A stretch of DNA of 24,000 nucleotides, from NCBI RefSeq assembly GCF_018336915.1, contig NZ_CP064923.1, positions 5,434,228 through 5,458,227 on the forward strand, in the 5' to 3' direction. The notes under the pieces are model-generated. The model had not been told where the DNA came from. It made no database searches and worked only from the letters and a program-made list of their open reading frames with translations. A program made the translations under genes and the position numbers. Origin of the DNA: Acaryochloris marina S15 (GTDB taxonomy: Bacteria; Cyanobacteriota; Cyanobacteriia; Thermosynechococcales; Thermosynechococcaceae). Below are positions 4,090-24,000 of the stretch, in pieces. Numbering within the stretch: the first letter of the stretch is position 1; every line of letters starts with the position of its first letter.

Positions 4090-4557
4090 ATGTTTTCGTT
4101 CATCCCTAGCTATAACAGCCTCCGGCAATATCCCGAACAAGGTGTGACCCTTTTAGAGCTATTAGTCAGTGTCGTTATTGTGGGTATTCTGTCTGCTGTG
4201 GCCGTGCCATCCATGTTGCAGCAATCTTTGAAAGCTCAACAAGCTGTCGCTCAAAGCTATATTGGCTCCGTTAATCGCGCTCAGCAAACCTACCGACTAG
4301 AATTTCCAGTATTTTCCAATACCATGGCCAATCTCGAAATTGATTTGCCACTTGTATCAGATCAATATACCTTCCAATTTGGAATCACGAACTCTACTCT
4401 GGGAGAATTCCAAGCAATACCGAACAACAATGATTTAGATGCCATCACCGGCTGTGTCTTTGCCACAATAGTGGCAGGATCCTCTGCAACCACCACTAGC
4501 ACGATGTTGGAACAATCTGGGACAGGGGTAGCACCTGCAGTTCCGCCGTCCTGTTAA
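4090..4557 (+). CDS. Type IV pilin-like protein (prepilin N-terminal cleavage/methylation domain)
   Basis: MFSFIPSYNSLRQYPEQG|VTLLELLVSVVIVGILSAVAVPSM is a class III signal peptide with Gly(-1) and Glu(+5), followed by the hydrophobic alpha1-N helix. SYIGSVNRAQQTYRLE is typical of cyanobacterial PilA-like proteins. Two Cys near the C-terminus could form a D-region disulfide. Start moved to ATG 4090. Confidence 0.75.
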   Translation: MFSFIPSYNSLRQYPEQGVTLLELLVSVVIVGILSAVAVPSMLQQSLKAQQAVAQSYIGSVNRAQQTYRLEFPVFSNTMANLEIDLPLVSDQYTFQFGITNSTLGEFQAIPNNNDLDAITGCVFATIVAGSSATTTSTMLEQSGTGVAPAVPPSC

Positions 4558-5569
4558 TATCTAGCGGTTGAATATTGTAGTGTTCCTGAATAGCTGTAAT
4601 AGGCTGCTCCAACAATTCTGAGAAAGACCAGTAGGGGCTGAACAAGTCTTGACGAACGGCAGTCCCTTGCACAAAGGCCTGGATCACCAAACTCGGGACA
4701 AAATTATTTTGACTCGGCTCCAAAACACCCAAGGTGGTGAATTCTAAGCCCAGGTGAAAATCCAACACCACCTCTAGCAACAACTCAAACCCAAATTGAC
4801 TGCCACTCATGCCCGCTTCAAAACCCGCCACCACAATTTCGCCGACGGGGCTGGTATCAATACCCGATAACAAATGAATCAGATCATGAGGCACCAGGAT
4901 ATCGCTAAAGCTTTTCTGCTCGCCGGGTAAGGGAAAGTTGCGATCGCGATAGTACTGATACAGCTCTTTCCCCAAGGTGCCATCGGGTAAATCTTCTAAA
5001 ACTTGATACTGACAGGCCGTTTCAGGATCACCGATATATTGGTGCATGGCGCTAACAATACACTTCAGTTTCTGCCACCATCCGCCTGGCAAGAGTTTGA
5101 CTAGGGATCGCACCGAGTAATCCCAAAATAACCCTCGCAATTGTCCAGCATGCACCCGCTGTAAGCTCTTCAAGGTATGGGGTTGATGTGGGCAACCTTG
5201 GGCAAACTGCTGCACTAAGTCCACTTCAGCTTGCTCAACCTCCATCGATAGGTAAGGCATCAGGATCAAAAATTGCAGGGCCAGCTCTTGATACCTACCT
5301 ATTAATTCACGCCCCAATATTTCTGGACTAATTATAGGTAGGTCCTCAATCGACCCTTGCCATTGGAGCAGATGGTCTTGAATCGACTGCATCATGTCTC
5401 TGGCTAAGGGATGCATGGGTTGTTGTCCCTGAAGGGTGGCAACCGTTTTCAGACTAGATAGTAGTGTGACTGACTGATGCTCATTCCAAACCATACCTTG
5501 AAAGTAAGGTGGACTGGGGACTTGAGTGGAAGAAGAAGTAGGGTTGACGGGCGTAGCGATAGTCGACAT
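4496..5569 (-). CDS. Coq4-family-like protein (HDxxH-x11-E metal-binding motif), 358 aa
   Basis: HDLIHLLSGIDTSPVGEIVVAGFEAG (4888-4838, minus strand) fits the Coq4 signature HDxxH-(x)11-E and closely resembles the eukaryotic COQ4 segment HD..H.L.G..T...GEIVVKWFEA as I remember it. Start moved to ATG 5569 (MSTIATP...), because the track's longer ORF (to 5905) would run antisense through the TetR gene. Confidence 0.6.
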   Translation of the reverse strand: MSTIATPVNPTSSSTQVPSPPYFQGMVWNEHQSVTLLSSLKTVATLQGQQPMHPLARDMMQSIQDHLLQWQGSIEDLPIISPEILGRELIGRYQELALQFLILMPYLSMEVEQAEVDLVQQFAQGCPHQPHTLKSLQRVHAGQLRGLFWDYSVRSLVKLLPGGWWQKLKCIVSAMHQYIGDPETACQYQVLEDLPDGTLGKELYQYYRDRNFPLPGEQKSFSDILVPHDLIHLLSGIDTSPVGEIVVAGFEAGMSGSQFGFELLLEVVLDFHLGLEFTTLGVLEPSQNNFVPSLVIQAFVQGTAVRQDLFSPYWSFSELLEQPITAIQEHYNIQPLDINRTAELQVLPLSQIVPTSC

Positions 5570-5599
5570 AGTTGCTCCCCTAATAGCGATATCTTTATA

Positions 5600-5619
5600 T
5601 TGACCGACCAGTCGGTCAA
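5600..5619. promoter_or_regulatory. Perfect palindromic operator candidate in the TetR / Coq4-like divergent promoter region
   Basis: TTGACCGAC-CA-GTCGGTCAA has 9-bp perfect inverted arms and a 2-bp spacer. It lies 31 bp from the Coq4-like start (5569) and 62 bp from the TetR start (5681). This geometry is classic for TetR-family operators. Confidence 0.55.
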
Positions 5620-5680
5620 ATGTCAAGTGAGAGTATGAAATGCCTACAGCAAAAGACACAGGAACAGCTATGATGACGCC

Positions 5681-6289
5681 ATGAGTCCCAAAATTGTTGA
5701 CCGAGAAGCCAAACGACAGGCAATTCTGGCCGCTGCGATCGCAGTCTTCGCAGAGAAAGGGTATCACTCCACTAAGATGGCCGATATTGCCCGTAAAGCT
5801 GAGATGGGCAAAGGCACACTCTACGAGTATTTCCGCACCAAGGAAGAACTCCCCAAAAGCATTTTTAGCCTGATGGTACAGGAGTTCGATCAACAAATTT
5901 CGCAACTAGAGGAAGCTCATTCCGATCCAGTTGAGGCCATCATGGCAGGAATTCAGCTCTGTTTTCAGGATCTTGATGAGTTCGCCTATATCACCCCCTT
6001 AGTCTTCGAGATTCTGGGTAACAAGGAGCTGGATCGATCAATTGGGTTAAGTGAAGACTTTGAACAGTGGATGGAGTGCTTAAATCAGTTCTTTATTACT
6101 CACATTCAAGCCGGTCAAGCCCAAGGGCAAATCTCATCTACTCTCTCGGCTCCCATTTTTGCTCGCATGCTGGTGAGTACCTTAGATGGGATGGCCACCC
6201 ACTACTGTATGTTCCACCTTCAACCGAAGTTTTTTACAGCTCAAGTCAAAGTACTAGAGGATATGGTCCGCTCTTATATCAAAACTTAA
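5681..6289 (+). CDS. TetR/AcrR family transcriptional regulator
   Basis: N-terminal HTH region AKRQAILAAAIAVFAEKGYHSTKMADIARKAEMGKGTLYEYFRTKEEL is the TetR_N signature. The C-terminal part is helical and would be the ligand-binding domain. Confidence 0.9.
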   Translation: MSPKIVDREAKRQAILAAAIAVFAEKGYHSTKMADIARKAEMGKGTLYEYFRTKEELPKSIFSLMVQEFDQQISQLEEAHSDPVEAIMAGIQLCFQDLDEFAYITPLVFEILGNKELDRSIGLSEDFEQWMECLNQFFITHIQAGQAQGQISSTLSAPIFARMLVSTLDGMATHYCMFHLQPKFFTAQVKVLEDMVRSYIKT

Positions 6290-11010: not shown

Positions 11011-11123
11011 AGATCTGGGATGCTATGCATATCCCCCAAAAAGAAGAACCCATAGTTCCGCAAAGGGTTTGCAACTCGGGTTTACTTCCCAAATGAGGGT
11101 ATTGATGACTGAGAGAAAATGAA

Positions 11124-11663
11124 ATGGTTAGCAATTTCTTAAACAAAAACACTCAACGCTCCAAAACCTATTGGCATCTTCAACAAAGCGGCACAGCCCT
11201 ACAAACAACATGGGTGAACTCAACCCAACCCCTGCAAGCCACCTCACCTAAACGCGATCACGGTAAAGTTGCACGTTCTACTGATGTTCGATCTTCACTG
11301 TTCCAAGCCTTAAGCACCACGCCCGACACCCCCTCTCTAGGAGAGCTGATCGCCCTCTCTTGCCACCGTCTAGTTTCATATATTCAGCTATCTAGCTTTC
11401 TACCCCTCTATGTCAAGCAAGCCTGGATTCGGCAAATTAGAGTGATTGATTTACAGCGCTGGCAAGCTGGGTTAGCCATTCTAGAAGAGCTATCTTTCGA
11501 TCACCGCTGCGCTCAGACAGACTATCGCCCTGGCCATGACATCTTTGATTACAACAGCAGCCAGAACCAGGATTTCAATGCCGAGATGACTTGTATTGAG
11601 CATGAACTCAATACCATTGAAATGATCCTCAACTATGCTGAAGACTCCGCTGAAGCCAGCTAG
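11124..11663 (+). CDS. Hypothetical protein (179 aa), no recognisable motif
   Basis: This is the only long ORF in the interval. The N-terminus is Q/S/T-rich and the C-terminus looks helical. It is bounded upstream by the 10978-11010 terminator. I recognise no family. Confidence 0.45.
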   Translation: MVSNFLNKNTQRSKTYWHLQQSGTALQTTWVNSTQPLQATSPKRDHGKVARSTDVRSSLFQALSTTPDTPSLGELIALSCHRLVSYIQLSSFLPLYVKQAWIRQIRVIDLQRWQAGLAILEELSFDHRCAQTDYRPGHDIFDYNSSQNQDFNAEMTCIEHELNTIEMILNYAEDSAEAS

Positions 11664-11707
11664 AACATCAGCCACCCAATCAATCCAAGCATGAGAAGCC
11701 ATTGATC

Positions 11708-11989
11708 ATGGGAGCAGTCTACCTGCATAAACTTTTCTTTTTATTCGGCCTATCCATCTTATGTGCGCTGATCTTTATCCCTTTGCTCACTGCCAATTTA
11801 CCAGGTTGGCTATTTCTCATCACTCTCCCTGTTGGCGCAATTATTTATATTGTGTTTCAGGCAGGCTTTGATCGCCTCACCGAATCGTTCAAAGGATCAA
11901 TGGGTAAGGTCGTCTGCTTCACCATATGTATGGTAGGCGGCATAGTGGGTGCAATGATGTTGGAGTTACTGAAATCTCTACTGGGTTAA
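11708..11989 (+). CDS. Hypothetical small membrane protein (about 93 aa, three hydrophobic segments)
   Basis: ATG at 11708 (the track's TTG start at 11702 is also possible). Hydrophobic segments LFFLFGLSILCALIFIPLL, WLFLITLPVGAIIYIVF and VVCFTICMVGGIVGAMMLELL. It begins 45 bp after the previous ORF. Confidence 0.45.
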   Translation: MGAVYLHKLFFLFGLSILCALIFIPLLTANLPGWLFLITLPVGAIIYIVFQAGFDRLTESFKGSMGKVVCFTICMVGGIVGAMMLELLKSLLG

Positions 11990-12274
11990 GGGATTGATTT
12001 TGGTCTGACTCTGTTGCAAAATTCGTCGCGTACTATTTATCTTGCATGCACCACCAGCCCGACATGTTCAACAATAGACGCCAACGATGAACTGAACTAG
12101 CTTCCGTTAGTTCCCTCATCGCCGCTAGCTTGATAGATTGCATCGGTATCCGTCATTGAGAGAACTCCCAAAGCAAGCATTATAATTTGCCCCTAGCCAA
12201 CTGCAAAACACGCCTATCAGCAGCTCACAGCCTGATTGATATTGGCCGTAAATTCACTCTAGATTTTATACAGT

Positions 12275-12307
12275 CAAAAATAAACAAGATAGAGGACGTT
12301 ATCTTGT
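12275..12307 (-). terminator. Hairpin plus U-tract, best read as a minus-strand intrinsic terminator
   Basis: ACAAGATA (12284-12291) / TATCTTGT (12300-12307) form an 8-bp perfect stem with an 8-nt loop. On the minus strand the stem is followed directly by TTATTTTTG (12283-12275). On the plus strand a less compact T-rich run (CTATTTTCATTCTTTTT) follows. Confidence 0.4.
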
Positions 12308-12471
12308 CTATTTTCATTCTTTTTGGGGAATTCTAAGCCAATACTCAAATCCTTGTCTTCAATTGCGATTACCTTCTACGCCAACACCAGCAACGATTAA
12401 TCCAAAAAATCCAGACATCATGGCTACAACCCATGCACTATCCATCTTTTAAGCGACTACGGAGTTAGTGA

Positions 12472-14601
12472 ATGCAAACCGTAGCCAACTACCTACGGTC
12501 ACTACCAACAGACTATAGAGTTATTTATAGTAAATATTTTCTAGCATTCATTACCTTAGGGTTTATTGCCTACGATTTAACTGAAATTGGCCCCAAGATC
12601 GGATCCTTATCTCGCACTGTTTTACCCGTTTTACCGATCTGTTCTTCACTGCTGATATTAGGGGCATTAAGGATTTTTCTACCCCAACGTCCACCCAAAT
12701 GGATTCAAGGGCTATTCGTTTTTTTATTGTTTGTTGTGCAAGCCCGATATCTCTTGTGGCGGGCAACCCATACTCTAATTTTGAGTGGGCCAGATGGTGT
12801 ATTTTGCATCGGCCTCTTTGCTTATGAACTGCTCAGCATTCTGAATAGCTGGACCAATAACTATTTAATCTTACGGTCTCCCAATCGCAGTCTCGAAGCC
12901 GATCAATATAGTCAGTGGGTGCAAAAGACCTATAAGCCCAGCGTCGATATTTTGATCCCCACTTATAATGAATCCCACAAAATGTTGGAACGGACGCTGA
13001 TTGGTTGTAAATCCCTGAAATACCCGAAACAACAAAAACACATTTGGTTACTGGATGATGGACAACGACCCGATGTTAAAGCGCTGGCCCAAAAATGGGG
13101 ATGCAATTACCTCACTCGGCCCATTAATGACCATGCTAAGGCAGGAAACCTCAATCATGCTTTAAAGCATGTCAGTAGCGAAATTTTGGTGGTTTTTGAT
13201 GCTGACTTTGTCCCCCTCAATCACTTTTTGGAACGAACCATTGGATTTTTCAAAGCAGACGATAATTTGTCCATGGTCGTCACTCCTCAAAAGTTCTACA
13301 ATCCCGACCCTCCTCAAAAAAACCTAGGCGGGCGGTTTATTACGGATGAGCAAACTGATTTTTACCAAGTGATTCAGCCCGCCCGAGATTCTGTCAATGC
13401 TGTGGTTTGTTCGGGTAGTTCTGTGCTGTATCGACGCCAGCATTTAGATGCCATTGGTGGCATTCCTCTAGATACCATTGTTGAGGACTATGCCACGGGC
13501 ATCTTAATGCAAGCTCGGGGTTATAAGACCGTCTATTTAAATGAACTGCTGAGTGTCGGCTGTGCCGCCAACAATATTAATGAATATCTAAAACAACGGA
13601 TGCGTTGGGCAGAAGGCACCTTGAGGATGGTGATTAGCAAACGTAATCCTCTGTGGTTGCCTGGCCTCAACTTTATACAGCGGTTTACCTATGCTGCGGG
13701 CACCCTGTACTGGCTGGAAGAGATGCTGAAAACCTTGAGCTTTTTGGCTCCTCTTTTCTACTTGCTGTTTGGATTCAAAAGCATTGACATCACGTTAGGG
13801 GAAGCCAGCACCTATACCTTCTATAATTATTCTCTTTCTATGATTGTGATGAGCTGGATGCGAGGCAGCGTCCTGTTATTGATTATCTATAATCTCTTGC
13901 AAGGGTTTCATATTTTCAAAGTTGTACTGAAAATATTTTTATATTCTCAAATCTCTGATTCCTTCCAGGTCACGAATAAACAGTTAGATAGCTTTGGTAT
14001 AAAGTTCAATCTTCACAGTTTGGCGCATATTTTCATACTTTTAGGACTCACTCTATTCGCGATCATGTATGGCTTATTCCATCCCACAGGTGACGATCTA
14101 TATATCATCAATCTCATTTGGGCCCAAGTGAATCTGCTCTTTTTAGCAGCAGCCCTGATTGCGGGAGTGAGTGCCGATCATGATCGGGGACACCCTCGGG
14201 TCTTTTCGGATGAGGTCTGCCAGGTAACGACCCAAACAGGACAAAGCGCCATGGGTCAATTTATAGATATTTCGGAAGCAGGCTGTCGCTTTCGCACCCA
14301 TAACCCTACCGCACTACAACTGAATGAGACCGTTGAATTAGCCGTACCCAGGACCAGCTTACGAATGATGGCTGAGATCCGCAATCAGCAGAAAAACGGC
14401 ACGGTGTATGGCTGCATGTTTAAGGATGTAGACGCGGTCACCCTCTGGAAAATCGTTAACTTTACCTATTGCAACCCCCAAAACTGGAAACTGCCTCGAA
14501 TTCCTACAGAGTGGGATACGATTCGTGCGATCGCATCTGGCTTATACGGCCTCTACCCTTTTCGCAACCTGAAAGTATCCTGTAAGATCAACCCACGCTA
14601 G
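12472..14601 (+). CDS. bcsA: Cellulose synthase catalytic subunit-like family 2 glycosyltransferase with C-terminal PilZ (c-di-GMP-binding) domain
   Basis: Processive GT2 motifs are present: DILIPTYNES, LLDDGQ, HAKAGNLNHAL, VVFDADFVP, IVEDYATG (TED) and QRMRW (13594-13608). There are multiple TM helices on both sides of the GT domain. PilZ motifs are RGHPR (RxxxR, 14185-14199) and DISEAG (DxSxxG, 14266-14283). GGAG lies 7 nt upstream of the ATG. Confidence 0.88.
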   Translation: MQTVANYLRSLPTDYRVIYSKYFLAFITLGFIAYDLTEIGPKIGSLSRTVLPVLPICSSLLILGALRIFLPQRPPKWIQGLFVFLLFVVQARYLLWRATHTLILSGPDGVFCIGLFAYELLSILNSWTNNYLILRSPNRSLEADQYSQWVQKTYKPSVDILIPTYNESHKMLERTLIGCKSLKYPKQQKHIWLLDDGQRPDVKALAQKWGCNYLTRPINDHAKAGNLNHALKHVSSEILVVFDADFVPLNHFLERTIGFFKADDNLSMVVTPQKFYNPDPPQKNLGGRFITDEQTDFYQVIQPARDSVNAVVCSGSSVLYRRQHLDAIGGIPLDTIVEDYATGILMQARGYKTVYLNELLSVGCAANNINEYLKQRMRWAEGTLRMVISKRNPLWLPGLNFIQRFTYAAGTLYWLEEMLKTLSFLAPLFYLLFGFKSIDITLGEASTYTFYNYSLSMIVMSWMRGSVLLLIIYNLLQGFHIFKVVLKIFLYSQISDSFQVTNKQLDSFGIKFNLHSLAHIFILLGLTLFAIMYGLFHPTGDDLYIINLIWAQVNLLFLAAALIAGVSADHDRGHPRVFSDEVCQVTTQTGQSAMGQFIDISEAGCRFRTHNPTALQLNETVELAVPRTSLRMMAEIRNQQKNGTVYGCMFKDVDAVTLWKIVNFTYCNPQNWKLPRIPTEWDTIRAIASGLYGLYPFRNLKVSCKINPR

Positions 14602-15077
14602 CCATCGCCACAGTCACCGATAAATGCACTCACTCATAAAATTAAATGCACCTGAACCGTCATTCTTGAGCGACACCTGTGTACTATTGAGATCGGACGG
14701 ATCAACTACGATCTAAGTGTTTCCCCTGATTTGCTCAAGACACATCATGAATTATGCTGTGCCTAGGTAAACAGGAGTCTTGTTCTTACTTCGTTTAAGA
14801 TAAAGATTACACCTAAAAAAGGTAGATTTAGACCATTTGAATAACTCACGTTGTCTATGATCTAGTCCAATCAAGGTAAAGATACTCTTGATCAATTTCC
14901 TGGTACTCATTATAGTTTTGGCCCGCTCAACTTAGAGCCCAAGATGATGACACCTTGTTGATTTAAAGTGAAACTCTCGTAAAAATACGGAGTATTCAGA
15001 GTTAGCTAGAGCGTCTTAATAGGGAATCCTTGTAATGAAGAGCTGTGGGTCTCATGGAGGTAAAAGGGAAGAGAGAC

Positions 15078-15458
15078 ATGACAACAGTAATGGTAGTTGA
15101 TGACAGCCCCACCATGCGTGCCATGCTAACGGATATGTTACAGCGCAATGGTCTAGAGGTCATTGAAGCTGAAGACGGCTTAGCAGCTAAAACAATGCTG
15201 CAGGCCAGTAGCTATCCAGACTTGGTGATCACAGATATTGTGATGCCTCGCATGAACGGCTATGAATTGTGCCGCTGGGTCAAAAATGACCTAACCGACC
15301 GCAACTTACCCGTGATTATGTGCTCTACCAAGGGTGAAGCATTTGATCGACATTGGGGCATGAAGCAAGGGGGAGACGCTTACATTACCAAACCCTTTAA
15401 CCCCTCAGAAATGCTCGATCTCATTCGTAAGCTACTCAAAACCCGGGCCGAGTCCTAG
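15078..15458 (+). CDS. Single-domain CheY-like response regulator (PilH/PixH-like)
   Basis: Receiver residues are present: VVDDSP (acidic pair), ITDIVMP (phospho-acceptor Asp), CSTKG and ITKPF (Lys). From memory, DIVMPRMNGYELCR...PVIMCSTKGEAFDRHWGMKQGGDAYITKPF closely resembles cyanobacterial PilH/PixH-type CheY proteins. Start moved to ATG 15078, which follows GGGAAGAGAG. Confidence 0.85.
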   Translation: MTTVMVVDDSPTMRAMLTDMLQRNGLEVIEAEDGLAAKTMLQASSYPDLVITDIVMPRMNGYELCRWVKNDLTDRNLPVIMCSTKGEAFDRHWGMKQGGDAYITKPFNPSEMLDLIRKLLKTRAES

Positions 15459-15475
15459 GGATTGGGTCAGCCAAT

Positions 15476-15961
15476 ATGGGAATCGAGATAGAGCGTAAGT
15501 TTCTCGTTACAGGAGAAGCATGGCGATCCATGGGCCATAGCGTCCCTCTCATTCAAGGGTATTTAGCAGGAAGTAATCAGGCCACCGCCAGGGTTCGTAT
15601 TGCCGGAGACATCGCCTTCCTCACCGTTAAAGGAAGAGTCAAAAATCTGACGAGACAGGAGTTTGAATATGAGATCCCTGTAGCTGATGCTCAAGCTATG
15701 ATGGATCTTTGCCATCCGAGAGTCGTTGAAAAAACCCGCTACAAGATTCCGATAGAAGACCTCATTTGGGAGGTTGATGAGTTTGCTGGCCAGAATCAAG
15801 GGTTAGTCCTGGCAGAAGTAGAGCTGACCTCTCCTGAGCAATCTGTCCCATTACCCGATTGGATCGGCCTAGAAGTCTCGGATGATCCGAGATATTTCAA
15901 TTCTTACCTAGCGGCTCATCCCTATAAAACTTGGCCCCATGAGTCAAGCTCCAATCCATAA
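15476..15961 (+). CDS. CYTH domain protein (triphosphate tunnel metalloenzyme, CyaB/ThTPase family)
   Basis: N-terminal MGIEIERKFLV carries the CYTH ExExK signature. Later acidic/basic strands (RVRI, FLTVKG, EFEYEI, KTRY, WEVDEF, LAEVEL) fit the tunnel fold. It starts 17 bp after the receiver gene. Confidence 0.85.
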   Translation: MGIEIERKFLVTGEAWRSMGHSVPLIQGYLAGSNQATARVRIAGDIAFLTVKGRVKNLTRQEFEYEIPVADAQAMMDLCHPRVVEKTRYKIPIEDLIWEVDEFAGQNQGLVLAEVELTSPEQSVPLPDWIGLEVSDDPRYFNSYLAAHPYKTWPHESSSNP

Positions 15962-15984
15962 TCAGGCTAGAAATTACCATTAAA

Positions 15985-16015
15985 TTAGCCCTCATGCTTA
16001 AGGCATGAGGGCTAA
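15985..16015. terminator. Strong hairpin between convergent genes (likely bidirectional terminator)
   Basis: TTAGCCCTCATGC (15985-15997) / GCATGAGGGCTAA (16003-16015) form a 13-bp perfect stem with a 5-nt loop. It sits between the CYTH stop (15961) and the prohibitin stop (16040). The flanking U-tracts are weak (ATTTAAT on the minus strand). Confidence 0.55.
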
Positions 16016-16039
16016 TCGCTTCGCAAATTAGGCCGGTCT

Positions 16040-16873
16040 TTATCCCTTACTATCTGCGTTGACATTAAAGAGAAATGGCACCTGTCCGCTATCTTTGCCA
16101 CTGCCACTAATTAAGACACGGGGCATTTGGGAACCCCCTTTCCTCCAGGCTTCAATCGCTTCTTTTTGCAGAACTAATTTGCCCCCTTGATCCTTCAAGG
16201 TTTCTGCCAATAGACGTTGGGCTTCTGCCTTACCCTTAGCACGGTTCACTTCAGCCAGGGCTTCTTGCTCAGCTTCCCGAGCAACATAAACCGCTCTCTG
16301 AGCGCGCTGTTCGGCAATTTGTTTCTCTTCAACGGCCTGAGCAAATTCTGGGGAAAAGTCGAGATCTACAACGCTAGTATCAAGAACGATAATGCCGTAT
16401 TTTTCCAGTCGCTTACTCAAAGCATCGTCAAAATCGGATTTCAAGACTTCCCGTTGGGTAATAGCTTCTTCCACGGTGCGGCGAGAGGCAGCAATCTTAA
16501 AAGACTCCTGAGTCTGGGGCGCAATGATTTTGGAAACAATATTTTGAAGAGAACCTTGCTTCCGTCTTACTTCTACCACTTCCGTTGCATCGAGCCGAAA
16601 GTTAATGGCAAAACGGGCGGTGAGGTCCTGTAAGTCTTTGGTAGAACTTTGGGCAGGAACTTCAAATTTTTGGACCGTCAAATCGTAAATATCGACTCTA
16701 GAAACAAAGGGAGCTTTGAAATGAATGCCTTCAAGGAGCGCTCCATCCCGCGCTTTTCCCAAAATACTGAGCACGCCAGCTTGACCGGGATTGATAATCA
16801 CAACAGCATTGAGGCCCAACAGTACCAATAACGCAATGATAATTCCGAGATTTGCTGGATTCCAATCCTTCAT
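16040..16873 (-). CDS. SPFH/band-7 (prohibitin family) membrane protein
   Basis: An N-terminal TM anchor (LGIIIALLVLLGLNAVVII) is followed by the SPFH core (PGQAGVLSILGK...GIHFKAPFVSRVDIYDLTVQ...) and a coiled-coil AEQRAQRAVYVAREAEQEALAEVNRAKGKAEAQRLLAE. Confidence 0.88.
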   Translation of the reverse strand: MKDWNPANLGIIIALLVLLGLNAVVIINPGQAGVLSILGKARDGALLEGIHFKAPFVSRVDIYDLTVQKFEVPAQSSTKDLQDLTARFAINFRLDATEVVEVRRKQGSLQNIVSKIIAPQTQESFKIAASRRTVEEAITQREVLKSDFDDALSKRLEKYGIIVLDTSVVDLDFSPEFAQAVEEKQIAEQRAQRAVYVAREAEQEALAEVNRAKGKAEAQRLLAETLKDQGGKLVLQKEAIEAWRKGGSQMPRVLISGSGKDSGQVPFLFNVNADSKG

Positions 16874-16903
16874 GCTTAAGCCTTTTTGGTAATCTTGCCT
16901 TTC

Positions 16904-18313
16904 TCAGGGTAGCTGATTTATCTCTTCCAAGGGCAGGGATTTAGCTTCAATCTTTTTAGGAAGCTGCTGAGGGAGTGTCACCGTAAAGAGGGTACCTTGC
17001 TGCAACCGACTGCTGACACTCATTTGACCTTGGTGATTGTGGCAAATCCCTTGTGCGATCGCAAGCCCCAATCCCGTTCCCATCACTTTGCCAGAGGAAA
17101 CGGGTTGAGCCGCCGGTATTAACGACCGCTGTCGAGCCGGATCCGCCCGATAAAACCGATCAAAGACATGGGGGATGGCTTCCGCCGGAATCCCGAGTCC
17201 CTCATCTTCAACTATCGCCTTTAGATAAGGTATACCTTGTCGAAGAGACTGTTTGAGGGTCACCCTGACCCTACCCTCCGCAGGGGTGTATTGAATACCA
17301 TTACTCACCAGATTGGTAAACAACCGCACCAGCTGATCGTAGTCTCCGATCACAGAAAAGGACTCTTCACCGGGTATCGTTTCTGCCCCCGTCTCTTCTA
17401 AATTTAGGTGTAGATGCACCCCCTTACTCGTCGCTAAAGCCCGTTGGTCTTCAACCACTTCCATCAAGACAGCATCCAACGGACAAGGCTGGTAGTCAAT
17501 CTGGAGCATGCCACTGTCTTGGCGGGCTAAAAACAGCAGGTCATCCACCAAGCGTCCAAGGCGCTGAGTCAGCCGCTCAATCACTTCTAACTGTTGCCGT
17601 TGCTCAGGCATCTCCAGTTCAGGATCTGCTAAAGCGACTTGCACATTGGTTTGGATAAGGGCAATCGGATTCCGCAACTCATGGGAGGCATCCGCCGTAA
17701 ACTGCTTCAGATGTTGGTAAGAGTCTTGAATCGGTTCAATGGCTAACCCCGAGAGAAACCAACCCGTCATTGCCACTAACCCCACTAACAAACTCGTCCC
17801 CAAGCTCAGGTCAATAAACAGTTGGCGAGCGGGTTTCGTCACCTCAAACCAAGGATGGCTCACTCTTAGATAGCCCAGCACATTGCCATTCAACATGACC
17901 CGCTGGGTGAGCTGCCGCAACAAGTAATCGTCTGCAATTTCAACGGTTTCACCACGGTAGCCCAACCGAATGGGGACCTCCAAGGTTTCAGATAGAGTTG
18001 ACCAAAGCAAATCACCGTCTGAATTAAACCATTCCAGATCAATCCGGTCATCATCCACCGCATCCGGCGGATCACCAAAGCTTGCTTCTAAATTAACGAT
18101 AAACGGAGAGTCTAGAGGAGAGAAATCTGCATTACTCGCCTCGACGACTAACGAGCGCTGTACCACCTCCACCACATGGCTCAAGGTATCATCCACCCGC
18201 TCAATCAGCGTGCCCCGCACATACAGGTAAAAACCACTGGCAAATACCAGCAGTAAAATTGCAGTGACCCCTGTATACCAGAGTGCTAATCGCCGTCGAG
18301 TTTTTTGGAACAT
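16904..18313 (-). CDS. Two-component sensor histidine kinase (two TM helices, periplasmic loop, HisKA + HATPase_c)
   Basis: H-box FTADASHELRNP, N-box LVSNGIQYT, G1 EDEGLGIP and G2 GTGLGLAIA. TM1 is ALWYTGVTAILLLVFASGFYL and TM2 is LSLGTSLLVGLVAMTGWFLSGL. There is no cognate DNA-binding response regulator next to it. Confidence 0.9.
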   Translation of the reverse strand: MFQKTRRRLALWYTGVTAILLLVFASGFYLYVRGTLIERVDDTLSHVVEVVQRSLVVEASNADFSPLDSPFIVNLEASFGDPPDAVDDDRIDLEWFNSDGDLLWSTLSETLEVPIRLGYRGETVEIADDYLLRQLTQRVMLNGNVLGYLRVSHPWFEVTKPARQLFIDLSLGTSLLVGLVAMTGWFLSGLAIEPIQDSYQHLKQFTADASHELRNPIALIQTNVQVALADPELEMPEQRQQLEVIERLTQRLGRLVDDLLFLARQDSGMLQIDYQPCPLDAVLMEVVEDQRALATSKGVHLHLNLEETGAETIPGEESFSVIGDYDQLVRLFTNLVSNGIQYTPAEGRVRVTLKQSLRQGIPYLKAIVEDEGLGIPAEAIPHVFDRFYRADPARQRSLIPAAQPVSSGKVMGTGLGLAIAQGICHNHQGQMSVSSRLQQGTLFTVTLPQQLPKKIEAKSLPLEEINQLP

Positions 18314-18327
18314 ACCGTAGAGACTAT

Positions 18328-18897
18328 TTATTCTGACGCCGTTTCTAAAGCCAGCTTTTCCTTATCTCGTTTCCGTTTCTTGGCATAGAGCTGGATCGTC
18401 ACCACCATCGCCACCACCATGGCAAAAATCACCCATACGGTTATATCCGTCGGCAGACTATTTTTGAAGACCGCCAACAGCACAATGGCCACTAGCATCA
18501 AGGTTGGCGCTTCATTGAGTGCCCGCAGTTGCTGCCCTGACCACCCACAGGTTCCTTCTTCCAGCTTTTTCATCAGCCGACGACAGTAGAAGTGGTACAC
18601 CAGCAACAATGCTACAAACCCTAATTTAACCTGTAGCCATCCTTGCTTCAGCAGATCAGGCTGAGTCACGAGCATCCCAATCGCCATCGTCACAGTCACC
18701 ATCATCCCAGGACTGGTAATGATGCTATAGAGACGCTTTTCCATCAGCGTATACTGCTGCTTGAGAATAGCAGGTGCAGGCTCCGGCTCATCGTTGGCTT
18801 CTACGTGATAGATAAATAAGCGGACTAAATAAAAGAGTCCAGCGAACCAAACAACAACGCCAATAATATGAAATGCTTTAAACCAAAAGTAAGCCAT
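18328..18897 (-). CDS. hemJ: Protoporphyrinogen IX oxidase, HemJ type
   Basis: MAYFWFKAFHIIGVVVWFAGLFYLVRLFIYHVEA... matches the conserved N-terminus of the HemJ family (Synechocystis slr1790-like) as I remember it. The protein is about 190 aa with 4-5 TM helices. Confidence 0.85.
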   Translation of the reverse strand: MAYFWFKAFHIIGVVVWFAGLFYLVRLFIYHVEANDEPEPAPAILKQQYTLMEKRLYSIITSPGMMVTVTMAIGMLVTQPDLLKQGWLQVKLGFVALLLVYHFYCRRLMKKLEEGTCGWSGQQLRALNEAPTLMLVAIVLLAVFKNSLPTDITVWVIFAMVVAMVVTIQLYAKKRKRDKEKLALETASE

Positions 18898-19104
18898 GAA
18901 CCTGCCAACACTTCAAAAGACCTAAAACCCATCCTAAACTAACCCTTGCCATGGCAAGAGAGTTACTAGGCGTTGCGTCATCTTCCTTAAAGATTGGGCA
19001 TCAAAACTCAGTTCAAGTCAGCTCCAATAAGCCTGAAACAGACATCAGCAATCGCCTTCTCGCTTCAACATGGGCTCGGCTTAACCTGAGTGGCAAGATT
19101 GAAA

Positions 19105-19166
19105 GTGCAATCTCTCTTGCCAGGCAATAGCTCCAGACATGAGATGTCATTCATAAGAGATTGCAC
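19105..19166 (-). other. 11-bp perfect inverted repeat directly after the msrA stop (structured 3' element or weak terminator)
   Basis: GTGCAATCTCT (19105-19115) and AGAGATTGCAC (19156-19166) are exact reverse complements 40 nt apart. On the minus strand only TTT follows the stem, so this is not a canonical intrinsic terminator. Confidence 0.4.
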
Positions 19167-19173
19167 CGCAGAT

Positions 19174-19830
19174 TTATGCTTCTACCAAAGGAGGGCATGT
19201 CACACTAGTCCCCCCTAATCCACAATAGCCACCCGGATTTTTAGCCAAGTATTGCTGGTGATAATCTTCCGCATAATAAAATTCGGGAGCATCCAACACT
19301 TCAGTCGTAATTTCATTTAGGCCAGCTTTTTTTAAAGCTTCCTGATAAATACCCTTGGAAGACGATGCTAGTGCCTTTTGCTGCTCCGAGTAGGTGTAAA
19401 CGCCAGAACGATATTGCGTGCCCACATCATTCCCTTGCTGCATCCCTTGGGTTGGATTATGGCTTTCCCAAAAAACTTGCAGAAGACTGTCGTAACTAAT
19501 TTTAGAAGGGTCAAAAATAACCATCACGACTTCGTTATGCCCCGTCATTCCTGAACAGACTTCTTGATATGTGGGGTTAGGCGTGACACCACTGGCATAG
19601 CCCACAGCAGTCACATACACCCCCTCCTGTTGCCAAAAACGTCGTTCAGCCCCCCAAAAACAACCCAAGCCAAACATGGCTTGCTCCAACCCTTCAGGAA
19701 AAGGAGGTTTGAGAGGATGACCATTGACAAAGTGCTTCTCAGGAACAGGCATCGATTTTGCCCGCCCTGCTAATGCGTCCTCTGAAGTCGGTAAGGTAAG
19801 CTTTTTCCCAAATAATCCAAAAAGAGCCAT
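19174..19830 (-). CDS. msrA: Peptide-methionine (S)-S-oxide reductase
   Basis: Active-site motif [13 protein letters not shown], plus GYASG..PNPTY.EVCSG.TGH.EVV...FDP and DYHQQYL. Confidence 0.92.
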
Positions 19831-20524
19831 AGTGCCAAAAATTAATTGATGAAGGACAGAGAGATACTACCTTCAGGGTAACGAATCCATAGGAACGCAA
19901 GGTTACCCTGGCATACATAGAACGATATATCTAGTCTCTACGAGATTGAAAGATAAAGAACGCAATCATATAGCCATTTTCTTATTCCACCTCCAAAAGC
20001 CTAATTTACAGCGACAACCCACAACTAACTATATAGATAAAAACACCGAGAATAACTTTAAGAATTAGTTGAAGCAGCAGGCCATATATTAAATAATTTC
20101 TTTCACTTTCATAGATAAAGCAAAGAGTTTTATCGGAAAACACTGACTCCTCTCAGCATTAATTGATTTTCAGAGCATAAATATCAGAGTTTTTACTGAG
20201 GTGGCCATATTTCTGAAGTAGCTACGCTAGTTATAGAATTCTCCCCAAAGAAAATATTCCGTATTTTCTCGCAATAGACAAAGCTCAAAATTCTAGCAAA
20301 CAATCAACAAAGCAGCTATTAATCAACAAACTAAATTCACATCTAAAGTGCTTCCATCAATGGAGGTTATTTTTACAATCAATCCATTCATACAATCAGA
20401 CTAAAAATACAAGCACAAACCAAAAAGCTACAGATAAAATCACATAAAGGCTCATTGTTTCACTTCTAATTAAGTTATACATTAGAAGAATTTTAATGAC
20501 GTCAATTCATACATAGCAGTGCCA

Positions 20525-20554
20525 GCATTGATATATAACCTGATATATCAATGC
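20525..20554. promoter_or_regulatory. 12-bp perfect inverted repeat in the AT-rich region upstream of the metalloprotease gene
   Basis: GCATTGATATAT (20525-20536) and ATATATCAATGC (20543-20554) are exact reverse complements with a 6-bp spacer. They lie about 200 bp upstream of ATG 20755. The function is unknown (operator or RNA hairpin). Confidence 0.3.
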
Positions 20555-20754
20555 AAGTACATTGCGGTGCCACTCATATTCATGAAAGCCATATCATCAA
20601 ACCCAAAAAATCAATAAAAAAGCTATTCCTTGATTAATTCATAAATTAATTAGCCAAGAAAACACCTAAAAATATCGCCTAACCAATAAATATCAGAAGT
20701 AAATCCACGAGATCTCTTCACTCATTTTTCAGACCTTAAATAACATCCAGTGCA

Positions 20755-23700
20755 ATGACCAACCCAGCCAATTCTCAAGAATCTCATGATGTTATAAGCT
20801 CTGATCTTGATCATGATAGAACTTCTGAAATAGAATTCTCGCTTAGCAATAATTCAACTCTCTTAAGCGACCAGAAAGAAGACGAACATCTGTTTAAAGA
20901 TGAGACAAAACCACCACAACCTTCCATTGAAGCATTAGAATCTTTATCAATTGAAGGGGCAAGCTCTCAGCAAAACGATTTCGTTGAACAATATCGTTTC
21001 GACGAGTATCTTAACAGCAAAACTTTTTCTCTTTCTCCAAATCTTACCTCTCTACTTAACCCTGCAGAGCAACAAGCAAGCTGTTTAAACTGTGGTCAAG
21101 TGGGATGCGCTTGTTCACCTAACCGGACCCAGCAACAAGACGACCCTCATTACCATCATGGCCATACGTCACACCATCATGGCCATACGTCACACCATGC
21201 TCATGGTTTAGAGGGAGACTTCCCTGTATGGAATACAGCTAACACTTCAGCTAATATCAACCCATCTTCTTCTCTAGCTGTTAGCAATACATTTCAACTC
21301 CACAGCAATCCCAATGCGCAACACACGATTTACTTAGACTTTGACGGACATACCACATCCGGAACATGGTGGAACAATGGGGGAACCATCCGATCTTCCG
21401 CCTATAATCGAGACGGTAATAGCGCGTCTTTCAGTACAAGTGAATTATTAGAAATTCAGTCGATTTGGCAGCAGGTCGCTGAGGATTTTGCCCCTTTTAA
21501 TGTCAACGTCACGACCCAAGACCCAGGCGCTGCAGCCTTAAGCAGAACAAGTAGCAGCGACAGTCAATGGGGCGTTCGTGTTTTATTCACTGATAACCGC
21601 AACGAGATAGATGGTACGGCAGTTGCTGCAGGCGCAGGAGGCATTGCCTATGTCGGTAGTTTTAATCGCAATGTTGATCAGGCCGTTTTTGTTTTTAATA
21701 AAGGGGCTAGAGCTGCTGCCGTCACTGCAAGTCATGAAGTTGGGCACAGTTTATATCTCAGGCACGATGGTATCAGTGGTCAGACCGCTTACCATCCTGG
21801 CCATGGCAGCGGTGCCACGAGTTGGGGCACTATCATGGGAGCCCCTTTTCAGGAAAACCTGACGCAATGGAGTAAAGGAGATTACTACAACGCAGATAAC
21901 ACTGAAGACGACCTTGCCATCATCACCACAAGAAATGGCTTTGATTATCGCTCCGACGATCATGGCAATAGCCAAGCCAATGCTTCAGCACTATCCCTAA
22001 ACAATGCCGGTCAAATGAGTTCCTTCGGCATTATTGAAAGGAATACAGATGTTGACTATTTTTCCTTCACAACAGGAGCAGGCGACGTTTCATTTACAAT
22101 TACTCCTACATCAAAAGCATTCGTTGGGAATGGTAGCGGTGGCTATGCCACTGAATACTTAGATGCTCAAGGCGCTAATCTCGATATCTGGGCGGGACTA
22201 TACAACTCTAATGGCACATTGTTAACATCTTCTAACCCGAGCAATCTTTTAACTGCAAGTTTAGACTTGTCCCTTACTGCAGGAACTTACTTTATCCGCA
22301 TTGATGGTGTGGGCAAAGATAATCCCTTAGTCAGTGGATCACAAGGCTATTCTGATTATGGCAGTTTGGGCCAGTATTCAATCCTTGGCAATGTTGAATC
22401 ACTCTCCGCGAGAATAATTGAAGCATCAGGGAATGCCTCATTACTCACTACGGTGGTTGGTTATCAACTTCAAGGGCAGGGAGCTGCTGCTCAGTTTCTT
22501 CGGTTGAACGGAAATGTGGTCAGCGAAAACACTTTCTCCGGCTGGTCTGCTATTGGTGTAGAGCGGTTAGGGCAAGGGTATCAGTTACTGTGGAAAAATG
22601 TTGATGGACGCTATTTAGACTGGCGGGTGGATGCAAATGGGACTTATCAGAGCTCTCAAAGTATCAGTGAAACAGAACTCACTAGTTTAGAACCGACTTT
22701 TCAGCAAGATCTCAATGGTGATCAAGAGATTGGATGGGCATCAACGGCGATAGAAACGGTTGGGACTGCCTCCTTAACAACAACGGCAGTTGGTTATCAA
22801 CTGCAAGGGCAGGGAGCTGCTGCTCAGTTTCTTTGGTTGAACGGAAATGTGGTCAGCGAAAACACTTTCTCTGGCTGGTCTGCTATTGGTGTAGAGCGGT
22901 TAGGGCAAGGGTATCAATTACTGTGGAAAAATGTTGATGGACGCTATTTAGACTGGCGGGTGGATGCAAATGGGACTTATCAGAGCTCTCAAAGTATCAG
23001 TGAAACAGAACTCACTAGTTTAGAACCGACTTTTCAGCAAGATCTCAATGGTGATCAAGAGATTGGATGGGCATCAACGGCGATAGAAACGGTTGGGACT
23101 GCCTCCTTAACAACAACGGCAGTTGGTTATCAACTGCAAGGGCAGGGAGCTGCTGCTCAGTTTCTTTGGTTGAACGGAAATGTGGTCAGCGAAAACACTT
23201 TCTCTAGCTGGTCTGCTATTGGTGTAGAGCGGTTAGGGCAAGGGTATCAGTTACTGTGGAAAAATGTTGATGGACGCTATTTAGACTGGCGGGTGGATGC
23301 AAATGGGACTTATCAGAGCTCTCAAAGTATCAGTGAAACAGAACTCACTAGTTTAGAACCGACTTTTCAGCAAGATCTCAATGGTGATCAAGAGATTGGA
23401 TGGGCATCAACGGCGATAGAAACGGTTGGGACTGCCTCCTTAACAACAACGGCAGTTGGTTATCAACTGCAAGGGCAGGGAGCTGCTGCTCAGTTTCTTT
23501 GGTTGAACGGAAATGTGGTCAGCGAAAACACTTTCTCCGGCTGGTCTGCTATTGGTGTAGAGCGGTTAGGGCAAGGGTATCAGTTACTGTGGAAAAATGT
23601 TGATGGACGCTATTTAGACTGGCGGGTGGATGCAAATGGGACTTATCAGAGCTCTCAAAGTATCAGTGAAACAGAACTCACTAGTTTAGAACCGACTTTT

Positions 23701-24000
23701 CAGCAAGATCTCAATGGTGATCAAGAGATTGGATGGGCATCAACGGCGATAGAAACGGTTGGGACTGCCTCCTTAACAACAACGGCAGTTGGTTATCAAC
23801 TGCAAGGGCAGGGAGCTGCTGCTCAGTTTCTTTGGTTGAACGGAAATGTGGTCAGCGAAAACACTTTCTCTGGCTGGTCTGCTATTGGTGTAGAGCGGTT
23901 AGGGCAAGGGTATCAGTTACTGTGGAAAAATGTTGATGGACGCTATTTAGACTGGCGGGTGGATGCAAATGGGACTTATCAGAGCTCTCAAAGTATCAGT
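20755..24000 (+). CDS. Large multidomain zinc metalloprotease (metzincin/reprolysin-like catalytic domain + PPC-like domain + 111-aa tandem repeats); 3' end lies outside the window
   Basis: It is not on the ORF track because it has no stop in the window. ATG 20755 is preceded by an in-frame TAA at 20737-20739. I translated frame 1 line by line to base 24000 (1082 codons) and found no stop. Zinc site HEVGHSLYLRHD (21733-21768) with a downstream Met-turn-like TIMG (21829-21840). TIYLDFDGHTTSGTWWN marks the start of the catalytic domain. DVDYFSFT...AGTYFIRIDGVG...YGSLGQYSILG is PPC-like (about 21955-22395). Confidence 0.8.
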   Translation, partial: MTNPANSQESHDVISSDLDHDRTSEIEFSLSNNSTLLSDQKEDEHLFKDETKPPQPSIEALESLSIEGASSQQNDFVEQYRFDEYLNSKTFSLSPNLTSLLNPAEQQASCLNCGQVGCACSPNRTQQQDDPHYHHGHTSHHHGHTSHHAHGLEGDFPVWNTANTSANINPSSSLAVSNTFQLHSNPNAQHTIYLDFDGHTTSGTWWNNGGTIRSSAYNRDGNSASFSTSELLEIQSIWQQVAEDFAPFNVNVTTQDPGAAALSRTSSSDSQWGVRVLFTDNRNEIDGTAVAAGAGGIAYVGSFNRNVDQAVFVFNKGARAAAVTASHEVGHSLYLRHDGISGQTAYHPGHGSGATSWGTIMGAPFQENLTQWSKGDYYNADNTEDDLAIITTRNGFDYRSDDHGNSQANASALSLNNAGQMSSFGIIERNTDVDYFSFTTGAGDVSFTITPTSKAFVGNGSGGYATEYLDAQGANLDIWAGLYNSNGTLLTSSNPSNLLTASLDLSLTAGTYFIRIDGVGKDNPLVSGSQGYSDYGSLGQYSILGNVESLSARIIEASGNASLLTTVVGYQLQGQGAAAQFLRLNGNVVSENTFSGWSAIGVERLGQGYQLLWKNVDGRYLDWRVDANGTYQSSQSISETELTSLEPTFQQDLNGDQEIGWASTAIETVGTASLTTTAVGYQLQGQGAAAQFLWLNGNVVSENTFSGWSAIGVERLGQGYQLLWKNVDGRYLDWRVDANGTYQSSQSISETELTSLEPTFQQDLNGDQEIGWASTAIETVGTASLTTTAVGYQLQGQGAAAQFLWLNGNVVSENTFSSWSAIGVERLGQGYQLLWKNVDGRYLDWRVDANGTYQSSQSISETELTSLEPTFQQDLNGDQEIGWASTAIETVGTASLTTTAVGYQLQGQGAAAQFLWLNGNVVSENTFSGWSAIGVERLGQGYQLLWKNVDGRYLDWRVDANGTYQSSQSISETELTSLEPTFQQDLNGDQEIGWASTAIETVGTASLTTTAVGYQLQGQGAAAQFLWLNGNVVSENTFSGWSAIGVERLGQGYQLLWKNVDGRYLDWRVDANGTYQSSQSIS
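21154..21195 (+). repeat. Perfect 21-bp tandem duplication encoding HHGHTSH x2 inside a His-rich tract
   Basis: CATCATGGCCATACGTCACAC occurs at 21154-21174 and again at 21175-21195. The surrounding peptide HYHHGHTSHHHGHTSHHAH (21148-21204) has 11 His in 19 residues. Confidence 0.9.
22417..24000 (+). repeat. In-frame tandem array of 333-bp (111-aa) units, at least 4.75 copies, continuing past the window end
   Basis: Units occupy 22417-22749, 22750-23082, 23083-23415, 23416-23748 and 23749-24000 (partial). Units 2-5 differ by only 1-3 substitutions each, for example TCTGGC / TCTAGC / TCCGGC at the same codon pair and CAATTA versus CAGTTA. Unit 1 diverges over its first ~50 nt and has CGG instead of TGG at 22501. 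Confidence 0.95.

Follow-up and report, generated by a model that had tools for sequence, protein, structure and literature searches.

The stretch of DNA analysed here, hereafter referred to as the window, comprises 24,000 nucleotides from Acaryochloris marina S15 (contig NZ_CP064923.1, positions 5,434,228 to 5,458,227 of the forward strand). Its downstream end is occupied by an open reading frame (ORF) for a zinc metalloprotease, whose C-terminal side is made of a tandem array of near-identical 333-bp units, each corresponding to a 111-residue domain of the Pfam family PF07483 (W_rich_C). Comparison with sister strains shows that this array evolves in concert, as a selected protein domain with a variable copy number. 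The interpretation proposed, which we hold with good confidence as a whole, is that of a W_rich_C array carried by a secreted protease, kept uniform by concerted evolution and used as a calcium-stabilised stalk or binding module. The role assigned in the last part of this interpretation is a likely one and is discussed separately below.

The protease gene and its repeat array

The features of the gene are listed below in the order of their coordinates.

20755..24000, + strand: ORF of the putative secreted zinc metalloprotease, starting with the ATG at 20755 and open at the window end, at least 1081 amino acids (aa) by frame analysis
21082..21204, + strand: N-terminal Cys cluster CLNCGQVGCAC (21082-21114) and His-rich stretch, upstream of the catalytic domain
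21541..21873, + strand: adamalysin/reprolysin-like (M12B) catalytic domain, from Pfam Reprolysin_3 and Reprolysin_5
22048..22308, + strand: PPC-like (bacterial pre-peptidase C-terminal) beta domain, from Pfam PF04151
22414..22746, + strand: W_rich_C unit 1, an edge unit diverged from the internal ones over its first 57 nt
22708..22734, + strand: DLNGDQEIG loop closing unit 1, recurring at 23041-23067, 23374-23400 and 23707-23733
22747..23079, + strand: W_rich_C unit 2, Pfam PF07483 (E 3.1e-27, 95.1 bits)
23080..23412, + strand: W_rich_C unit 3, carrying the unit-specific Gly43Ser
23413..23745, + strand: W_rich_C unit 4, from the unit comparison
23746..24000, + strand: W_rich_C unit 5, 255 of 333 nt, stopped by the window end

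The array extends from 22414 to 24000 on the + strand and includes 4.77 in-frame units of 333 bp. Since unit 5 is cut at the window end (24000) after 255 of its 333 nt, this copy number is a lower bound (at least 4.77). Tandem Repeats Finder delimits the repeat to 22456-24000, with a period of 333, 4.6 copies, 99% matches, 0 indels and a score of 3048. The repetition begins around position 43-58 of unit 1 at the DNA level and at 22414 at the protein level. Units 2-5 are pairwise 1-2 nt apart and display only 3 variable sites. Position 126 is a C in units 1 and 4 and a T in units 2, 3 and 5, and position 171 is an A in unit 2 exclusively, both changes being synonymous; at position 127, an A confined to unit 3 converts a Gly to a Ser (Gly43Ser). 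Unit 1 is 19-21 nt apart from the other window units, and 18 of these differences lie within its first 57 nt. A preliminary description, established from the letters of the window, had proposed near-identical 333-bp tandem repeats encoding a Trp-rich 111-aa module. Both the program and the in-frame comparison of the units bear this out, and the distribution then given for TCCGGC, TCTGGC, TCTAGC and CAATTA among the units is in exact agreement with sites 126, 127 and 171. The peptide reported for the unit agrees with the translation but was a string of 107 aa, to which the WAST linker has to be added in order to obtain the 111-aa period. A window unit includes 5 Trp, 12 Asp/Glu and 4 Lys/Arg among its 111 residues. 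The other frames and the opposite strand of the array contain short repeat-generated ORFs only; an out-of-frame ORF of 67 aa, which recurs in each unit, is a mechanical by-product of the repeat. No match was obtained in an Rfam scan of the window.

Each unit corresponds to one PF07483 domain, matched over the entire model (1-105/105) at 95.1 bits and E 3.1e-27 for a gathering threshold of 26.2 bits. The whole protein reaches 395 bits (E 1e-120) against the same model in 5 stretches. The conserved core positions of the family, namely Gly6, Leu10, Trp44, Glu50, Trp60, Trp70, Asp73 and Phe96, are all present in the window units. The resemblance first noted, to a little-characterised repeat found in calcium-binding exoproteins of cyanobacteria and proteobacteria, is therefore accounted for by PF07483, whose members often carry RTX repeats. 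Homologue searches with one unit or with the unit alignment were near-empty, these queries being short; the full-length query and an exhaustive hidden Markov model (HMM) search were used instead. The latter retrieved 3,889 cluster representatives with a threshold of E <= 1e-3, and 1,207 with the stricter E <= 1e-10, the clusters being defined at 50% identity, and 184 PF07483 proteins were looked at in detail. These contain 1-11 units per protein, with 4 as the commonest count. In 35 of the 169 multi-unit proteins, neighbouring units share at least 90% identity, several of them reaching 100%. Near-identical adjacent units and varied lengths therefore make near-identical, copy-variable arrays the normal state of the family. 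A W_rich_C protein with RCC1 repeats and 7 identical units has 90%-identity cluster members of 1538, 1660, 1820 and 2062 aa, which suggests a copy-number variation similar to that of the window locus.

The named members of the family originate from Cyanobium, Synechococcus, Reyranella and Bradyrhizobium and are all annotated as 'hypothetical'. Their partner domains are RTX repeats, LVIVD, RCC1 and leishmanolysin, together with sub-threshold Calx-beta. No functional study of W_rich_C was found in a full-text literature search. The exoproteome of Synechococcus WH7805 has been reported to include a protein that combines peptidase domains with five tryptophan-rich repeats (PMC4949707). Known already are the Pfam family itself, the annotation of the gene in sister strains and the near-identical copies typical for the family.

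From the N-terminus onwards, the protein displays a pro-region, an adamalysin-like zinc protease, a PPC-like domain and the W_rich_C units. The catalytic domain is detected by Reprolysin_3 (30.5 bits for a cut-off of 22.4) and by Reprolysin_5 (27.7 bits for a cut-off of 27). It contains the zinc motif HEVGHSLYLRHD at 21733-21768, which agrees with the HExxHxxGxxHD consensus except for a Tyr in place of the Gly. By its motif and by these models, the domain is assigned to the metzincins of the adamalysin/reprolysin type (MEROPS M12B); a PDB sequence search with the protein returned weak matches to adamalysin II and atragin. The PPC-like domain is covered over its full length by PF04151 (1-70/70, E 9.7e-5) at 23.6 bits, slightly below the cut-off of 25.9 bits. 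Relatives of the protease-PPC part at 35-47% identity are present in Shewanella, Vibrio, Planctomycetota, Nocardioides and Acidimicrobiaceae genomes, so the catalytic module is far wider spread than the W_rich_C array.

Orthologous arrays and concerted evolution

The region 11105-24000 of the window is collinear with a contig of A. marina NIES-2412 at 97.3% identity, and the window is also collinear with the chromosome of A. marina MBIC11017 at 81-88% identity. A locus search with the protease-PPC part as query returned MBIC11017 as the only Acaryochloris genome. The protein is 98% identical to a 'zinc-dependent metalloprotease family protein' of NIES-2412 and 84% identical to the A. marina protein P0002. 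The orthologues carry 6 W_rich_C units in NIES-2412, 3 in MBIC11017 and 2 in a relative from an ENA metagenome. With at least 4.77 units in the window, the copy number does vary between strains, as had been anticipated from the near-identity of the units. A relative with 57% identity displays 1 W_rich_C unit and true RTX repeats.

These same-locus arrays also bear on the reliability of the assembly. Exact 333-bp repeats are difficult for short-read assemblers and the window stops inside the array, leaving the far side out of sight; the near-identical copies could then result from an over-expansion or a mis-join, the true gene containing one or two units. Such an artefact is extremely improbable. 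Assemblers collapse repeats of this nature and do not multiply them, units 2, 3 and 4 each possess their own combination of variants, and near-identical arrays are frequent across the PF07483 family. The finished MBIC11017 chromosome, NIES-2412 and the ENA metagenome contig all contain an array at this locus. Because other assemblies, one of them a finished genome, contain it, the array is not an assembly artefact, and the single-copy outcome named in the preliminary description as an argument against its own reading is contradicted. The array is confirmed as real.

The relationships between units were established by counting nucleotide differences between 333-nt units. Within the NIES-2412 array, units 2-5 display 0 differences, and adjacent units of MBIC11017 are 14-20 nt apart, mostly at the outer ends. 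Between strains, the internal units of the window are 9-11 nt apart from those of NIES-2412, and full-length units of the window and of MBIC11017 are 55-69 nt apart. Outside the repeats, the gene shares 98.7% identity with the window in NIES-2412 and 84.0% in MBIC11017. The synonymous divergence (dS) follows the same trend, with 0.73 between window and MBIC11017 units and 0.08-0.12 between the units within MBIC11017. The preliminary description had proposed a very recent expansion or ongoing conversion, against which highly diverged units in related genomes would have spoken. The 0-2 nt found within the arrays of the window and of NIES-2412, as compared to 9-11 and about 60 nt between strains, decide in favour of that proposal.

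The first units behave differently from the internal ones. Unit 1 of the window is 7 nt apart from unit 1 of NIES-2412 and 21 nt apart from unit 2 of the window; being closer to its counterpart in the other strain than to its own neighbour, it indicates that the first units are orthologous across strains. In every array, the diverged positions are located at the 5' end of the first unit and at the 3' end of the last one. Such edge-only divergence is what homogenisation by unequal exchange should leave behind, since the edge units take less part in it. All four internal units of the window carry the derived Arg30Trp substitution (position 88, C to T), which is absent from unit 1 and from all units of the other three arrays. 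A new variant has therefore spread across the window array. The haplotypes at sites 126/171 are C/G, T/A and T/G in the window and C/A in NIES-2412, so that all four combinations exist; this is thin evidence, compatible with an exchange between units. The mosaic sharing of variants noted at the outset is observed as described, and it relies on two informative sites only. The ratio of nonsynonymous to synonymous substitutions (dN/dS) of the units between strains is 0.10-0.14, which implies purifying selection on the domain sequence; the array is therefore not a neutral spacer.

The mechanism behind this evolution is unequal recombination or gene conversion between the 333-bp units, which keeps the internal copies near-identical in each strain, distributes new variants over the units and shifts the copy number between strains.

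The gene order around the protease is alike in NIES-2412 and MBIC11017, with GT2-PilZ synthase, response regulator, CYTH, Band 7, histidine kinase, UPF0093, PMSR, protease and SMC genes. In the window, the regions 12472-14601 and 15045-15961 contain a cellulose-synthase-like GT2 with a PilZ domain, then the response-regulator and CYTH genes. This group lies 6 kb upstream of the protease and is syntenic in all three strains. A DDE_Tnp_1 transposase gene lies between the PMSR and protease genes of MBIC11017 (7791-9209 of the MBIC11017 locus), at a place where NIES-2412 and the window (19831-20754) contain only some 920 bp of non-coding DNA. Scans for promoters and terminators ahead of the protease gene remained at chance level. 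Two ORFs of the window, 4496-5905 (-) of 469 aa and 11124-11663 (+) of 179 aa, have no Pfam match at E <= 1e-5, and the latter is a gene call devoid of Pfam matches in NIES-2412 as well.

The N-terminal Cys/His segment of the protease is a possible pro-domain or metal-binding region. The Cys cluster CLNCGQVGCAC is kept in NIES-2412, MBIC11017 and the ENA relative, and might act as the 'cysteine switch' of a pro-domain or form a metal site. The His-rich stretch HYHHGHTSHHHGHTSHHAH (within 21148-21204) could be a variable metal-binding segment. It includes a 21-bp tandem repeat at 21152-21198 (2.2 copies, 100% match), of which an 88%-match version is found in NIES-2412; no repeat is called there in MBIC11017.

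Predicted structure, junction loop and C-terminal tail

The AlphaFold model of a single unit, built from 35 sequences, reached a pLDDT of 74 and its Foldseek matches were not significant. The model of two consecutive units, built from a more diverse 40-row alignment, reached a pLDDT of 91.5 and a pTM of 0.67, with a pLDDT of about 85 at the junction. The modelled unit displays eight strands, the last four forming a clear meander, then a helix at residues 86-96 and a loop. Each 111-aa unit is accordingly predicted as an independent all-beta domain with one helix, whose loop would lead straight into the next unit. This prediction is drawn from the range of 1-11 units per protein, from the Thr/Pro-rich linkers of relatives and from the confident two-unit model. 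Neither the protein nor the unit profile retrieved a solved relative of the W_rich_C repeat when searched by sequence against the PDB. The repeat region is not matched by the BIg, Cadherin-like or He_PIG models of Pfam, and the Foldseek matches listed for the single- and two-unit models include neither an Ig-like nor a BIg structure.

A comparison of the two-unit model with the PDB using Foldseek produced 12 matches at E < 1e-3, all of which are beta-propellers: BtuK/BT2095, the prolyl oligopeptidase/PCY1 propeller and plexin/semaphorin, with Atg18 and NHL just above E 1e-3. The best weak matches of the single-unit model are likewise pieces of propellers, including a designed two-bladed fragment. 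From these matches, and from 4 being the commonest unit count in the family sample, a different architecture can be envisaged, in which the units would be paired blades closing into a propeller (six blades for three units, eight for four) and would constitute one ligand-binding domain of constrained copy number. We consider this architecture improbable. With TM-scores of 0.17-0.26 and root mean square deviations (rmsd) of 12-15 A, the two-unit model does not superimpose globally on propellers, so the likeness is local, limited to blade-like meanders, and involves no shared global fold. A constrained copy number is also at odds with the 1-11 units of the family and with the 2, 3 and 6 units of close orthologues. 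The long Thr/Pro-rich linkers found between units in relatives speak against the propeller too. The two halves of a unit have no sequence relationship (hhalign probability 0.3%), and an origin of the unit by internal blade duplication was rejected on this same alignment.

Considered as independent domains, the units are joined by the best-conserved stretch of the PF07483 family. Among 823 unique junctions, this closing motif reads E (85%), two variable residues, F (82%), one variable residue, Q, D (89%), L, N (77%, with D at 11%), G, D (78%), G (70%), one variable residue, I/V (70%) and G (78%). The consensus E-x2-F-x-Q-D-L-N-G-D-G-x-I-G continues into the I-E-x-x-G-x-T-x-L of the next unit. 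We take this motif to fit the DxDxDG / EF-hand-like calcium-loop class of Rigden and Galperin, and the DxNxD calcium-loop-like motif first perceived in the window is thus a family-wide pattern. The window loop DLNGDQ has Asp/Asn at positions 1, 3 and 5 as required by DxDxDG, and a Gln at position 6 for the Gly of the consensus. From this pattern we infer that the junction loops may bind Ca2+.

Additional indications come from the modules with which the protease is associated. Other cyanobacteria combine the same protease-PPC pair with RTX, Calx-beta, cadherin-like, Ig-like, PKD or VCBS modules; W_rich_C thus fills a slot otherwise held by calcium-binding extender or adhesion domains. The calcium and stalk ideas are favoured by the occupants of this slot, the conserved junction motif, the acidic character of the unit and the co-occurrence with RTX repeats, as well as by the WH7805 exoproteome protein and by the precedent of RTX adhesins. 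A Cyanobium/Synechococcus subgroup of the family displays Thr/Pro-rich linkers between its units and VDAxGTPL in replacement of the closing motif. The W_rich_C proteases of these organisms have no RTX-type tail and share another C-terminus, ...VDPIIGGGTSLAP...SPFPAAG...TTPWLVxTQPLL, which may be a different sorting or anchoring signal.

The export of the protein was considered from both of its ends. Reading of the sequence shows an acidic N-terminus (MTNPANSQESHDVISSDLDHDRTSE...) that lacks any hydrophobic stretch resembling a signal peptide. In all orthologues, the last unit is followed by a tail of about 130 aa, which in the window strain lies beyond the window end. A four-sequence profile of the orthologue tails matches the RTX blocks of CyaA (E 3.8e-9), as well as the R-modules of AlgE, the C-terminal regions of serralysin, alkaline protease and PrtC, and LipA. 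The protein P0004 is recognised by the Pfam model HemolysinCabind at 47 bits. All the proteins matched by the tail profile are type I secretion substrates and, judging from the orthologues, the complete protein looks like a type I secreted metalloprotease with a degenerate RTX beta-roll tail.

Proposed role and comparison with known systems

The calcium-stabilised stalk or binding module is envisaged as follows. Upon export into calcium-rich surroundings, the acidic junction loops would bind Ca2+, and the bound ions would help the domains to fold and make the chain stiffer. Thus stiffened, the array would serve as a stalk or as a multivalent binding module which positions or anchors the protease, and its reach or avidity would be set by the copy number.

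A number of observations weigh against this interpretation. No experiment or solved structure was found for any W_rich_C domain, and the calcium and stalk steps are inferential. The window loop carries a Gln at position 6 where the consensus has a Gly. Calcium binding is not essential to the fold, since Cyanobium-type units have VDAxGTPL and lack the RTX tail. The RTX-type tail itself lies beyond the window; the tail of P0002 has no Pfam or NCBIfam RTX match at threshold, and the four-sequence profile alone reaches RTX structures. Type I secretion genes are absent both from the window and from the 10-kb flanks of the orthologues, although such systems can be encoded elsewhere in the genome. 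Lastly, gene conversion and repeated unequal crossing-over cannot be separated with three variable sites.

Another role deserves consideration, in which the array would be mainly a carbohydrate- or cell-surface-binding module resembling a lectin or a carbohydrate-binding module (CBM). Through its conserved aromatic residues it would attach to polysaccharide and so fix the protease on the sheath or on extracellular polymeric substances (EPS), and DxNxD would serve as a structural turn rather than a calcium site. A tandem arrangement at the C-terminal side of a secreted hydrolase is common among CBMs and cell-wall-binding repeats, and W_rich_C, which is Trp-rich and all-beta, is likewise in tandem at such a position. 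Cyanobium-type units lose DxNxDG and yet keep the fold signature, and a cellulose-synthase-like GT2-PilZ gene is located 6 kb upstream in all three strains. However, the neighbourhood resembles housekeeping genes rather than an operon, and no link of GT2-PilZ to the protease was seen. The invariant W60 and W70 and the nearly invariant W44 belong to strands of the best-predicted core, where they may be structural, and neither the sequence nor the fold comparisons matched any CBM or lectin. This lectin-like role appears rather unlikely as the main function but is a live alternative; it overlaps with the calcium-stabilised stalk or binding module, and the two are not mutually exclusive.

The array illustrates cleanly how an exoprotein gene with internal repeats evolves in concert and varies in copy number. 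In this respect it is useful as a strain marker and as an assembly warning, and leaves existing knowledge unchanged. PF07483 is a large secreted family of ecologically important cyanobacteria and some alpha-proteobacteria, for which no structure or function was found. The confident two-unit model and the conserved DxNxDG junction offer a cheap and testable hypothesis, that of a calcium-dependent folding and stiffening. More speculatively, W_rich_C could be a structurally new calcium-dependent beta domain, an extender or glycan-binding class for the type I secreted enzymes of cyanobacteria and alpha-proteobacteria, in which recombination within the array would allow strains to tune the reach or avidity of a surface-associated protease. 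With its thousands of clusters, the PF07483 family would be opened up by a first structure and ligand.

Among known systems, the closest relatives of the window units are the other members of PF07483. They share the end-to-end match to the model, the conserved Gly, Leu, Glu, Trp and Trp and the tandem arrangement in an exoprotein, whereas the window units are distinguished by the Gln at loop position 6, a very short GWAST linker and the derived Trp at unit position 30. The closing loop can be compared to DxDxDG loops, with Asp/Asn at positions 1, 3 and 5, a Gly at position 6 and a hydrophobic residue at position 8 in the consensus D-L-N-G-D-G-x-I-G. This likeness is one of sequence pattern alone; the PF07483 loop is devoid of an acidic residue at position 12 and that of the window has its Gln at position 6. 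The protein as a whole recalls serralysin-type proteases such as AprA and PrtC, which are zinc metalloproteases without an N-terminal signal peptide and with a C-terminal RTX beta-roll region. Unlike serralysin (M10B), its catalytic domain is of the adamalysin/reprolysin-like M12B type (HExxHxxxxxHD), its RTX part is short and degenerate, and PPC and W_rich_C domains are inserted between the protease and the tail.

The array itself is best compared to the extenders of RTX adhesins, in which identical tandem repeats are rigidified by calcium (PMC4083281, PMC7493085). Region II of MpIBP/MpAFP, with about 120 identical Ig-like repeats of 104 aa, and the BIg domains of SiiE are examples of such extenders (PMC4083281, PMC7493085, PMC5466336). 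They likewise consist of beta domains in tandem, each about 100-110 aa long and the same or nearly so in DNA sequence, which belong to proteins with an RTX-type C-terminus, fold outside the cell and carry acidic calcium-binding residues at the domain junctions. The two are not homologous: the fold predicted here comprises two four-stranded meanders and a helix, with no Ig-like sandwich. The arrays here contain 2-6 units, their cargo is a protease instead of an adhesin head, and their calcium binding is putative. The RTX adhesin extenders are nevertheless what the W_rich_C array most plausibly works like.

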